The notes under the pieces are model-generated. The model made no database searches. It was not told the origin of the DNA and saw nothing but the letters and a program-made list of their open reading frames with translations. DNA of 50,514 nt from a virus (Duplodnaviria; Heunggongvirae; Uroviricota; Caudoviricetes). The stretch lies in the IMG/VR virus record IMGVR_UViG_2534681773_000022; one strand, 5' to 3'. The translations under genes were made by a program, and so were the position numbers. Of the stretch, positions 23,251 through 25,705 are shown one piece after another (position 1 is the first letter of the stretch; each line of letters opens with the position of its first letter).

Positions 23251-23290
23251 TTTTAATTTCACTGAAATTTAATACGTGACTTTCAGGAAA

Positions 23291-23318
23291 ATGCCTCGCA
23301 GATGCGGGGCATTTTTGT
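23291..23318 (+). terminator. Intrinsic terminator after the lysis cassette
   Basis: Hairpin ATGCCTCGC-aga-TGCGGGGCAT followed by TTTTT. Confidence 0.55.
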
Positions 23319-23666
23319 ACAGGTATTTCACCGCGCACCGCAGCGCACTCAACCACGTCGAACCAAACCCTTTGGAATGAGCCTTTGAGTAGTCAGTTAG
23401 TGCTGGTGAGCCTTGACGGGCTGATCTCCTATGCCGCAAAGGTTCATCTCAAAGTAAGACGAACGCTATGACAAACCAAGATTCTATAGACCTATCTGAT
23501 CTTCGTGGAATGGTCAGTTTTCCAGACAAAAGGTAATCACCATAGTCGTATGGCTATGAATCTTGTTGCTGCAGATAAGCATTTTGTGATTGAAGTGGTC
23601 AAATCTCTCAAATGCAGTAAAATGCAGTGCGCTATAATTCAATAACGGAGGGAGTAAGGAGAAGTC

Positions 23667-24287
23667 ATGAAAGATCAAGATGTTAGGTTCGCGGTGCATC
23701 ATAAGCTTTTGAAAGAATCGCATTTAGATCCAGACTGCCTTGTGGTCGATGAATTTTCCATATCCCTTGGCGCCAGTAGAGCAGACATTGCTGTAATAAA
23801 TGGTGTTATACACGGGTACGAGCTCAAAAGTGAATATGACTCTTTGGAGCGTTTGCCTCTTCAAATCAAGCATTATTCTTCTGTAATGGACAAGGTTACT
23901 CTTGTCGTAGCTGAGAAACACCTTGAGGGAGCATTAAAGTTAATCCCAGGTTGGTGGGGCGTTAAAACGGTTTCTGTTGGGCCAAAAGGCGCCATTCTTA
24001 TAAAGCACATGCGTGGAGAAAAGCTTAATCGAAACCATGACACATTGATGCTCGCTCAATTGCTTTGGAAAGATGAATGTATCGACGTACTTGAACGATG
24101 GGGCTATTCCAAAGGAATCAAAAGCAAGCCCCGATTTGAGTTATGGAATATTATTGCGGAAAATATTCCAATAGCGAATCTCAGGCCTGAAGTCAGAACA
24201 GCCTTAAAGAAACGCGTAGGCTGGAAAGTTAAGGCTTGGCAGGCTGAGTCTGCGCCAACCAATAAAGCTGTCTCACGACTAACGTAA
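23667..24287 (+). CDS. Cargo protein with PD-(D/E)xK-like nuclease motif (restriction-endonuclease fold candidate)
   Basis: 206-aa ORF with AAGGAG RBS; candidate catalytic residues ...VDEF...RADIAVINGVIHGYELK... (D, then ExK 13 residues later); low GC; 3' end overlaps the convergent partner by 59 bp. Confidence 0.6.
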   Translation: MKDQDVRFAVHHKLLKESHLDPDCLVVDEFSISLGASRADIAVINGVIHGYELKSEYDSLERLPLQIKHYSSVMDKVTLVVAEKHLEGALKLIPGWWGVKTVSVGPKGAILIKHMRGEKLNRNHDTLMLAQLLWKDECIDVLERWGYSKGIKSKPRFELWNIIAENIPIANLRPEVRTALKKRVGWKVKAWQAESAPTNKAVSRLT

Positions 24288-25296
24288 TATGGTGCGTATG
24301 TGCAACTTTACGCCATTCTTTAGAGCCGCCAGATTTGTTAGCGCCTAATGATCTTTGGTAAATGTAATCATCCCCCCAACTAAATTTGGAGCCAAAGACT
24401 TGATACTCTGGCGAACTAACAAGGGTAGTACATAAGTTTTTAGTTTGGCCCCATCCATTTCCTTTAACTGCGGTACCTTTTACAAAGATCCATGAGGTAT
24501 CGTTCGAATATCTCACTGAGACATACTGAGACATGAAGCGTGGGTCTACGCTCGTAATGGTAGAGCTAGCGGTGGGATAATCACTAAAACTTGGCGTTCT
24601 TCCATTGCTAAAATTCTGTACTACGTACATCCAAAGATCGTATTCATGGCGCGGAATATGATGAACTTGATGTTGCGGTATCCCTGCCTGTGATGCCGGG
24701 TATGCGGTTGAAGATAAAATCAAGTTTCTCCACGGAGCTTGGCCTGATAATGTGTTGACCATGCTTAATGCTTGTTGTTTTAAACTATCAGTTGCGTTTT
24801 GAATATCTCCAAAATCAATGATTACATCAATTAAACTAGGATGAATATTTAAGTGGTTAACCAGACTTGTGAATTGGTGCCATGTCTGGGGGGTGATAGA
24901 TATAGCGAGCCCATTGATTAAGTTGCGTTGAACAGCATGTATATAGTTTGTTGAATATGCGGGAGAAACAACAGGGATAATTTCCTTACCATTTACTCTA
25001 GCATCTTGGATACACATATCTAGAGGATGATGGCGGCTCGAACCATGTTTATCTAAATATTTAACATCCAGCAAAACAGGACGATTGGCTTTCCAGGATG
25101 CCGCAAGGTTAATACCGAAGTCAGATAAGTAAGAACTCAAACTCTTCTTGTAGCATTCGTTTTCATAATCCCAGTCTATGTCTGGAATGGTAATGATCGG
25201 AGTAAAACCAGAGAGCGTAGTTTGATCTAAAAGCATCAGAGATTCATATTCAGCAGGCTTCCATTTCAGCTGTGGATAATATTGATGTTGACTCAT
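24229..25296 (-). CDS. Cargo protein of unknown function, convergent partner of the nuclease-like gene
   Basis: 355-aa ORF with AAGGAG RBS 6 nt upstream; low GC; family not assignable from sequence alone. Confidence 0.6.
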   Translation of the reverse strand: MSQHQYYPQLKWKPAEYESLMLLDQTTLSGFTPIITIPDIDWDYENECYKKSLSSYLSDFGINLAASWKANRPVLLDVKYLDKHGSSRHHPLDMCIQDARVNGKEIIPVVSPAYSTNYIHAVQRNLINGLAISITPQTWHQFTSLVNHLNIHPSLIDVIIDFGDIQNATDSLKQQALSMVNTLSGQAPWRNLILSSTAYPASQAGIPQHQVHHIPRHEYDLWMYVVQNFSNGRTPSFSDYPTASSTITSVDPRFMSQYVSVRYSNDTSWIFVKGTAVKGNGWGQTKNLCTTLVSSPEYQVFGSKFSWGDDYIYQRSLGANKSGGSKEWRKVAHTHHITLVVRQLYWLAQTQPAKP

Positions 25297-25519
25297 TAAA
25301 ACTCCTTAAAATCTTTACTTATCCTAAGTATAGTGTTATGGCGTAACGCCAATTGTTTTTATACACTTGAAAACATTGGGAAAAGTTGAGCTATATCTAA
25401 ATTTACAAAATTGGATGTTATAGAAATCGAGGTTTCAACTAGGCATGGAACTGCAAAATTTTTAATGCCTGCACGCGAAAGTCGTTGGCGGGTCCTTTCC
25501 GGTGATCCAGATCGTTACG

Positions 25520-25531
25520 GGGCGGCGACCT
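25520..25531. other. cosN cohesive-end site (GGGCGGCGACCT), with cosB between it and Nu1
   Basis: Exact match to the lambda 12-nt cohesive end in the lambda context (...GATCGTTACG|GGGCGGCGACCTCGCGG...), about 186 bp upstream of Nu1. Confidence 0.75.
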
Positions 25532-25705
25532 CGCGGTTTTTCACTATTTATGAAAATTTTTCAGGGAAAATCGTGTCGGTACTTCTCGAATATAACTTTT
25601 TGTTTTTTTAATATTGCATTCATAAATGTCCGACATGAAAGTGTCCGAAAATGCCTTTTTCTGGCGTTTTCATGTCGGGCCTTGTATTTGATAATGGGTT
25701 GTTCT

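Follow-up and report, generated by a model that had tools for sequence, protein, structure and literature searches.

The stretch of DNA analysed here (the window: 50,514 nucleotides, IMG/VR virus record IMGVR_UViG_2534681773_000022) holds a complete lambdoid prophage of Escherichia coli, and our subject is a pair of convergent genes that it carries between its lysis genes and its packaging site. Judged by homology, this pair is a two-gene relative of the gop-beta-cII system of P4 that lacks gop. A gene of the sce7726/Phage_P4_cII family encoding 206 aa (the cII-like gene, or cII) occupies 23667-24287 on the plus strand, and a gene of the Pfam Beta_protein family encoding 355 aa (beta) occupies 24229-25296 on the minus strand. 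Their 3′ ends are shared over 59 bp (24229-24287), which hold the last 19 codons and the stop codon of each gene on opposite strands. An AAGGAG ribosome-binding site can be read in the sequence 5 nt before each ATG, at 23656-23661 (plus strand) for cII, whose ATG starts at 23667, and at 25302-25307 (minus strand) for beta, whose ATG is at 25296-25294. The holin, endolysin and Rz genes lie upstream of the pair, with Rz ending at 23250, and cosN (GGGCGGCGACCT, 25520-25531, plus strand) and the terminase genes lie downstream, with the small terminase gene starting at about 25707. The G+C content is 0.37-0.445 over 23200-25600, against 0.47-0.58 in the flanks. An initial annotation, made from the letters of the window, had described two convergent, AT-rich open reading frames (ORFs) with these overlap coordinates and ribosome-binding sites between the lysis cassette and cos, and our coordinates agree with it.

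The initial annotation treated the whole range 23251-25705 as cargo. With these 2455 bp as the query, matches to other phages end at query position 221 and restart at 2232, which delimits an inserted, AT-rich two-gene cassette at about 23472-25481, between the end of the left-flank homology and the start of phage-21-type cos homology. The cargo assignment therefore stands for this cassette but not for the first 221 bp (23251-23471), which lie outside the module and are a relic of a P22-type rha/ORF201 region: they match the rha region of P22, BTP1 and related Salmonella phages at 87% identity, and inspection of their ORFs found no intact one of note. The position of this rha relic directly after Rz is evidence for an earlier exchange of cargo at this site. 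From 25482 on, the DNA matches the cos/terminase region of phage 21 and relatives at 95-96% identity, and the phage-21-type cosN marks the right limit of the cargo site, outside the module.

The full 2455 bp are 99.9% identical in 126 of 5426 complete E. coli genomes (~2%). More than 1400 E. coli genomes have the flanking phage DNA, but only 126 of them have the cassette as well. A DNA search found it in no deposited phage genome. Phages with the same cos/terminase region carry other cargo here, in that PhiR57_1 has bor among its genes at this position and 4A7 has small hypothetical genes, in agreement with the earlier view of this place as a cargo hotspot where lambda carries bor. These sequence comparisons indicate that the interval between Rz and cos is a variable cargo site and that the cassette is a moron of a phage-21-like lambdoid prophage.

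Both genes are preceded by conserved non-coding sequence. Before cII, a block at 23604-23638 (plus strand) is made up of CAAAT..., AAATGCAGT (23610-23618), AAAATGCAGT (23619-23628), GCGC and TATAAT (23633-23638). The tandem AAATGCAGT-AAAATGCAGT repeat (23610-23628) and the TATAAT box had been pointed out before; both are present, and they belong to a segment that is near-invariant in seven sequences from four genera (represented by E. coli, Klebsiella, Edwardsiella and Pectobacterium) and in viral contigs. A consensus promoter scan gave no signal above chance. The block is probably a genuine promoter/operator all the same, since it is kept across genera amid sequence that diverges. Before beta, the blocks at 25355-25400 (minus strand; TTAGATaTAGCTCAA ... 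TTTTCArgtGTATAAAA) form a candidate promoter; they are kept in E. coli, Klebsiella, Edwardsiella and Pectobacterium, and the spacer to the beta start codon is not kept.

Families and predicted folds of the two proteins

Profile searches and structure prediction name a family and give a predicted fold for both proteins. The cII-like protein belongs to NCBIfam NF033832, the sce7726 family (184.1 bits against a cut-off of 70, residues 1-183 aligning to positions 1-182 of the 184-position model), and it also matches the PADLOC model 'cll' (3.8e-31) and phrog_984; a newer Pfam family, PF26915 (Phage_P4_cII), is precomputed on all its listed homologues. Its structure is predicted with a predicted local distance difference test score (pLDDT) of 90.6 and has a restriction-endonuclease-like fold with an alpha-beta-beta-beta-alpha-beta core, laid out as a nuclease domain (residues ~1-120), a helical C-terminal domain (~126-182) and a disordered tail (192-206). 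In this model, D40 is on the strand 37-44, and E52 and K54 are on the strand 48-54, which correspond to strands 2 and 3 of the fold. E29, D40, E52 and K54 are identical in 89/89 members of the cII family from many phyla, and N45, D58, R62, Q66, E137 and R183 are likewise identical across all 89; the last ~16 residues of the window protein are unconserved as well as predicted disordered. Many restriction enzymes are among the nearest structural neighbours in a fold search, the closest solved structure being MmcB-like/SPO1766 (PDB 3dnx), and a sequence search of the PDB with the cII family profile found no relatives. Some homologues carry the names 'DNA repair protein MmcB-like' (one) or 'regulatory protein' in their source records. 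The D ... ExK arrangement had been proposed to mark a restriction-endonuclease-fold nuclease, and both the invariance of the motif and the predicted fold agree; on this model, the cII-like protein is a PD-(D/E)xK-fold protein with a complete, invariant catalytic motif.

The 355-aa protein, which the initial annotation could not place in any family, is a full-length member of Pfam PF14350, Beta_protein (190.4 bits against a cut-off of 27, residues 6-342 on positions 1-342 of 342), and RefSeq names the two products in E. coli genomes 'beta family protein' and 'sce7726 family protein'. It matches phrog_9159 (7e-153), the PADLOC 'beta' model over its full length (3.5e-10), and the two PADLOC PD-Lambda-2_C models mainly with its C-terminal half, residues 132-349 (4.4e-32 and 2.2e-25). 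The predicted structure (pLDDT 94.1, predicted template modelling score 0.92) is a (beta/alpha)8 TIM barrel followed by C-terminal helices. Conserved residues across the family are Y6, E16, D77, D161, R216, D239, Y263 and H336, and the model puts the conserved aspartates at the C-terminal ends of the barrel strands, the usual active-site face of TIM-barrel enzymes. A search of the PDB with the beta family profile found no relatives by sequence, and in the viral structure library BFVD the sole relative is a member of the same family, from Gordonia phage Powerball. No hit stood out in a fold search for a specific enzyme family of beta, which returned generic TIM barrels only, all at ≤10% identity; hits that would make it DpdA/TGT-like or GDPD/PLD-like were indistinguishable from background. 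On the predicted structure, beta is an orphan TIM barrel. The family comprises 4,397 clusters among 1.84 billion cluster representatives (50% identity), 3,506 of them at E ≤1e-10, nearly all single-domain proteins of 350-380 aa, and it reaches bacteria, the candidate phyla radiation (CPR), an archaeon and phages.

A sce7725/sce7726-type pairing had also been suggested for this locus. The small protein is indeed of the sce7726 family, but the large one has no match to the NCBIfam sce7725 model at E up to 1, and a search with that model at E up to 10 found no match in the window beta together with nine partners from other phyla, myxobacteria included. We regard the family assignment of both proteins as nearly certain. 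Databases already have names for both gene families, and systems homologous to the pair have been published.

The pair and its interlocked ends across genomes

A search based on cII in one genome per species gave 215 matches, of which the best 80 were analysed. These 80 come from alpha-, beta-, gamma- and delta-proteobacteria, Firmicutes, Bifidobacterium, Chloroflexi, Elusimicrobiota, three CPR genomes and an archaeal metagenome-assembled genome. A beta-family ORF is the convergent neighbour of cII in 78 of the 80 genome loci; of the two exceptions, one lies at a contig end (L061) and the other (L062) has room for beta but no such gene, even in six-frame translation. The convergent bare pair is found in 77/80 viral contigs. 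When the search started from beta, cII was convergent and immediately downstream in 43/44 loci, the exception being cut by a contig end. Taken together, these sequences indicate a pairing that is nearly obligate across phyla, always convergent and in most cases interlocked. Among the 80 genome loci and 80 viral loci searched, none had a Gop homologue. The set retrieved with beta includes two actinophages: in Gordonia phage Powerball the partner bears the annotation 'exonuclease', and in Mycolicibacterium phage Mycofy1 it bears none. The unannotated Mycofy1 gene (PQ356897.1, 3584-4150, minus strand) matches the cII profile at 7e-68 and is convergent with and touches the beta gene at 2581-3615; the deposited record has no feature between 3615 and 4304.

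The pair occurs in several architectures. The bare pair with a short cII of ~190 aa is the type seen in the window and is common in prophages. In the P4 type, found in P4, Salmonella and Pseudomonas syringae, gop abuts beta, cII is long (264-270 aa) and the genes do not overlap. In a third type, present in 30/80 genome loci and always with a convergent cII, a gene for a protein with an Xre helix-turn-helix (HTH) and a Peptidase_M78 domain (Xre-IrrE) abuts beta, and its product matches PADLOC PD-Lambda-2_B over its full length (1e-84 to 1e-143). A DUF6932 gene precedes the Xre-IrrE gene in 16 loci. It stands in the place of HigB at L113 (6901-7590) and 15 other loci (e.g. L089, L105, L112, L115 and L119-L122), belongs to PF22014 and matches PADLOC PDC-M63A weakly; the resulting four-gene arrangement of DUF6932, Xre-IrrE, beta and cII is found in sphingomonads and relatives. 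A fourth type, seen in prophages of Acinetobacter and at one further locus, has the pair immediately downstream of a CI-type HTH/S24 repressor, where lambda has rexAB. In myxobacterial and related genomes, a gene for a caspase-like protein (Peptidase_C14, 'EACC1-associated type') lies directly upstream of cII and in the same orientation (L091 2407-3954, L094 2096-3955 and L136 2054-3931), and it could be a further add-on effector module for the pair.

The upstream genes can also occur by themselves. HigB plus Xre-IrrE pairs on plasmids of Paraburkholderia graminis, Acinetobacter sp. WCHA55 and a Limnohabitans sp. (L230-L232) have no beta or cII within 3 kb in 3/3 loci, which rules out the idea that PD-lambda-2 B always accompanies beta-cII. 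From the sequences compared, beta-cII looks like a common core to which Gop and HigB/DUF6932-Xre-IrrE have been added upstream of beta as separable, lineage-specific modules.

The pair is carried by prophages, satellites, plasmid-like or integrative elements and defence islands, with some loci near the toxin-antitoxin (TA) genes hokD, HicAB and AbiE, and in diverse genomes its flanks include phage or satellite genes such as Rz, terminase, recombinases and DUF927 primases. E. coli itself holds a second version, only distantly related to the window pair and more typical of the family, which has a 41-bp overlap and adjoins hokD in the nin region of Rac-type/lambdoid prophages of ~93 other complete genomes (~2%). 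Many of its carriers are Shiga toxin-producing E. coli, and it is also present in phage Rac-SA53. A DNA probe from a core-type enterobacterial pair matched only this nin-region version. It lies at 4001-5636 in E. coli C311, 2013C-3492 and 214-4 (L143-L145) and at 3989-5624 in phage Rac-SA53 (L015).

The 3′ ends of the two genes overlap in 75/78 genome loci, by at least 20 bp in 70 of them, the commonest lengths being 44, 41, 38 and 56 bp. The first bases of the cII R183 codon and the beta H336 codon are exactly 39 nt apart in 69/84 pairs, drawn from all phyla sampled, and their distance is a multiple of three in 76/82. Ungapped alignment of the junctions places the conserved C-terminal helix of beta (H-H-I-T-x-V-V...) opposite the unconstrained tail of cII, and the conserved L-K-x-R-x-x-W motif of cII opposite the tail of beta. 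In the clade of the window (E. coli, Klebsiella, Edwardsiella and Pectobacterium), the R183-H336 distance is 78 nt, an in-phase expansion by 39 nt, and the overlap is mostly 11 bp; the closest relatives in other genera have only 11 bp, and in E. coli the lengthening of cII by 16 unconserved, disordered residues restored a longer overlap of 59 bp. On this comparison, an overlap of exactly 59 bp is thus specific to the E. coli lineage, and the phase-locked interlock is older and more general. The 78 nt between the invariant codons in the window (24213-24291) are exactly twice the 39 nt of the 69/84 pairs, and this segment holds three AGGCT(T)G-like repeats (aggctgg, aggcttgg and aggctga).

A structured bidirectional terminator within the overlap was considered and rejected, because a consensus scan found no terminator in the window junction and because folding, one by one, of 30 of the 61 unique ungapped junctions gave no sign of conserved RNA structure (mean z -0.04, none below -2).

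Proposed function and its rivals

Two related systems have been described. The gop-beta-cII system, which goes back to the P4 genetics of Ghisotti 1990 (cited through Rousset 2022, PMC9122126), gives protection against lambda and P1 as a three-gene construct, its Gop component is toxic without beta, and the pair is non-essential in P4 (PMC9122126). A phage protein, orf184, encoded next to ral, triggers cell death via gop-beta-cII (Silas et al., bioRxiv 10.1101/2023.04.06.535777). PD-lambda-2 consists of a HigB-like A, an Xre-HTH/IrrE-peptidase B and a beta-like C and acts by abortive infection (Vassallo 2022, PMC9519451); its component C is needed for defence and not for toxin neutralisation (PMC9519451). 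The PD-lambda-2 clone (ECOR42 contig QOYB01000002, 228989-232396) has only 396 bp after the 3′ end of gene C, too few for an intact convergent cII of ~580 bp. Every Xre-IrrE plus beta operon that we retrieved is followed by a convergent cII gene of ~580 bp. Going by these sequences, the native PD-lambda-2 locus may have an overlooked fourth gene, cII, that was truncated in the clone.

By analogy with these systems, we give an even chance to the reading that the bare pair is a prophage-expressed abortive-infection or anti-phage defence module. It draws on the phenotypes published for the two related systems, on the distribution of the pair as accessory cargo in hotspots and on the invariant catalytic residues in both proteins. 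The initial annotation had proposed a defence or addiction module; a defence role is plausible by homology to two of the three gop-beta-cII genes and to PD-lambda-2 C, and for the two-gene form by itself defence or toxicity would be an extrapolation from these relatives. In such a module, the pair would be expressed from the prophage and protect the lysogen against other phages by a mechanism of the abortive-infection type. Beta would be a sensor or controller, and cII a metal-dependent DNA nuclease effector, held inactive as long as beta is not perturbed by an incoming phage. The genes would be transcribed towards each other through their shared 3′ ends, where no terminator lies, and the resulting mRNAs would be mutually antisense, which could couple the expression levels of the two genes, and the overlap would also keep recombination from parting them. 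Gop, in the P4 lineage, and HigB or DUF6932 with Xre-IrrE, in the PD-lambda-2 lineage, would be toxin modules grafted upstream of beta. The division into sensor and effector and the regulatory role of the overlap are rather unlikely to be right in this form.

A wider reading joins these elements, and we hold it possible but on balance doubtful. Under it, beta-cII would be a self-sufficient two-gene immune module, widespread and so far unrecognised, of which gop-beta-cII and PD-lambda-2 would be elaborations; the PD-lambda-2 definition would omit a native fourth gene; and the phase-locked antisense 3′ overlap would be a functional coupling device, in which convergent transcription sets the ratio of the products and the overlap makes the module inseparable.

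Several points weigh against a defence function of the bare pair. The published phenotypes are those of three-gene constructs whose toxic components (Gop; HigB/Xre-IrrE) are absent here, and the window proteins are only 22-27% identical to those of P4. We found no paper in the searchable literature that describes or tests the form with two genes and no gop, and the papers mentioning the name sce7726 are genome reports. The known defence genes that flank the pair in diverse genomes, namely PD-lambda-3 B (four loci), PD-lambda-1, PtuA, MzaA, Lit, AriA and type II/IIG restriction-modification (R-M) genes, were counted without a background control. If the native PD-lambda-2 locus has cII, the fact that a clone probably without an intact copy still defended would argue that cII is not an essential effector there. 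Finally, beta is without a specific enzymatic relative, so that 'sensor' is a guess, and its conserved acidic ring fits catalysis at least as well.

Other functions have therefore to be weighed against defence. Many type II R-M systems are convergent, 3′-overlapping gene pairs with separate promoters, and the layout of the cassette recalls them. In an R-M-like pair, beta would be a TIM-barrel enzyme modifying DNA or a nucleotide, and cII the cognate nuclease cutting unmodified incoming DNA. The TIM-barrel transglycosylase DpdA inserts preQ0 into DNA, the invariant aspartates of beta lie on the catalytic face of its barrel, and restriction enzymes are among the nearest structural neighbours of cII. 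However, Pfam, NCBIfam and PADLOC give no methyltransferase, transglycosylase or other modification signature in either protein, and the P4 and PD-lambda-2 relatives act as toxin-linked abortive infection triggered by a phage protein, not as restriction, which makes this reading improbable in our view. An addiction module that stabilises the mobile element, with cII as a nuclease toxin, beta as its antidote and no direct role against phages, is unlikely but fits several observations: early descriptions of P4 had beta neutralise a toxic partner; the two genes form a compact, almost obligate pair that resides on prophages, satellites and integrative elements, often beside TA genes such as hokD, HicAB and AbiE; and, with their ends interlocked, one gene can hardly be lost without damage to the other. 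Yet P4 beta neutralises Gop, which is absent here, and not cII, and the toxic products in the relatives are Gop and PD-lambda-2 B. Antitoxins are also normally small and labile, for which a 355-aa TIM barrel with an active-site-like ring is atypical, and both related systems that have been tested protect against phages. Addiction and defence are, moreover, not mutually exclusive.

The pair might instead serve the life cycle of the phage itself, in the control of lysogeny or in DNA repair, recombination or processing near cos. Its proximity to cos in both P4 and the window prophage would suit such a role, as would the naming of the P4 gene cII as a phage gene, the DNA-repair-type MmcB-like protein as the closest solved structure, the homologue named 'DNA repair protein MmcB-like' and the 'exonuclease' annotation in Powerball. 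Elsewhere, however, the pair lies at unrelated sites (the nin region, downstream of cI, beside an integrase and in non-phage islands), so that a function linked to cos is unlikely; it is non-essential in P4, and its presence in 126 of the more than 1400 E. coli genomes with the flanking phage DNA is a pattern of accessory cargo and not one of core phage functions. We attach little probability to this reading. Neither do we expect that beta is the sole active player, together with host or prophage factors, and that cII is a DNA-binding regulator keeping a nuclease-like fold. PD-lambda-2 did defend from a clone that, with 396 bp beyond gene C, could probably not hold an intact cII, and some sources name cII homologues 'regulatory protein'. 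But the identity of the four catalytic-motif residues in 89/89 proteins across phyla is hard to explain without catalysis, and the presence of cII at the ECOR42 locus is itself a presumption; this explanation, too, is very unlikely.

If the bare pair does defend, a large gene family would become recognised as an immune module that combines an orphan TIM-barrel enzyme with a restriction-fold nuclease, a new combination of parts. Current defence-finding rules miss the bare pair because they require gop, or HigB plus Xre-IrrE. Gop and HigB/Xre-IrrE would then be read as optional toxin add-ons to a beta-cII core, and the mechanism, namely what beta detects or which reaction it catalyses, could be studied with no more than two genes. 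Because two conserved protein ends overlap in antisense and in fixed phase across phyla, these convergent genes are an unusually clear natural example of interlocking, on which one could study how such overlaps restrict evolution and gene expression. Of the complete E. coli genomes, ~2% carry the pair as accessory cargo at this site, and ~2% carry the second version at another prophage site.

Further features of the window lie upstream of the lysis region. Two tRNA genes are located at 17959-18120; the first is called tRNA-Met (anticodon CAT) by ARAGORN and tRNA-Ile by RefSeq for the identical gene of strain DA33133, and CAT fits both. Just before the holin gene, a 623-aa ORF (19650-21521) is an accessory late-region gene that RefSeq names a SASA-family carbohydrate esterase.

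Comparison with known systems

The cII-like protein shares its alpha-beta-beta-beta-alpha-beta core with MmcB-like/SPO1766 (PDB 3dnx), the Can2 nuclease domain, NucS, SdaI and other type II restriction enzymes, and with MmcB-like/PD-(D/E)xK nucleases it has in common the D...(D/E)xK arrangement on strands 2 and 3. Unlike these, it has no detectable sequence link to any solved structure, carries its own helical C-terminal domain and has an obligate TIM-barrel gene partner. At the level of the locus, convergent type II R-M pairs offer an analogy from general knowledge: like the window pair, they have separate promoters, touching or overlapping 3′ ends and one restriction-fold nuclease, but they include a recognisable modification enzyme, and none was found in the window pair.

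In gene content, the pair resembles P4 gop-beta-cII (PADLOC gop_beta_cll), where gop (133 aa), beta (355 aa) and the convergent cII (264 aa) follow one another in this order and adjoin cos. Both loci hold a 355-aa beta-family protein and a cII/sce7726-family protein encoded by convergent genes, both adjoin the cos of a mobile element, and both are non-essential cargo in a variable hotspot. The homology is distant but runs from end to end in both proteins, with 22% identity for beta (BLASTP, E 3e-7) and 27% for cII (E 3e-19), and two marks of the P4 system, a beta homologue and a cII homologue convergent with it, are found in the window. However, gop is missing: no minus-strand ORF of at least 20 aa lies between 25297 and cos, where a membrane protein of ~126-137 aa would be expected upstream of beta. 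A hidden third gene was sought on either side of the pair and rejected, with no gop-like, HigB-like or Xre-IrrE ORF there. The P4 cII also differs in its length of 264 aa, with ~75 extra residues at the C-terminus, and between it and beta lie 27 bp with a terminator, whereas the two genes of the window overlap. This P4 type, found together with gop in Salmonella and Pseudomonas syringae, forms a sub-lineage of its own.

With PD-lambda-2, the window shares component C as a beta-family protein, and full-length matches to the PD-Lambda-2_C models (1e-40 to 1e-58) are seen for core-type beta proteins of many phyla and are far better than those to the P4 'beta' model. PD-lambda-2 differs in having the HigB-like A and the Xre-IrrE B, whereas the window encodes nothing upstream of beta, although homologues of B are easy to detect at loci that have them; the published definition of PD-lambda-2 is without a cII component. 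As A/B-type pairs are also found where beta and cII are absent, the two modules can be separated. Relative to the searchable literature, what appears to be new is the bare, convergent and phase-locked beta-cII pair as a widespread core of both gop-beta-cII and PD-lambda-2.

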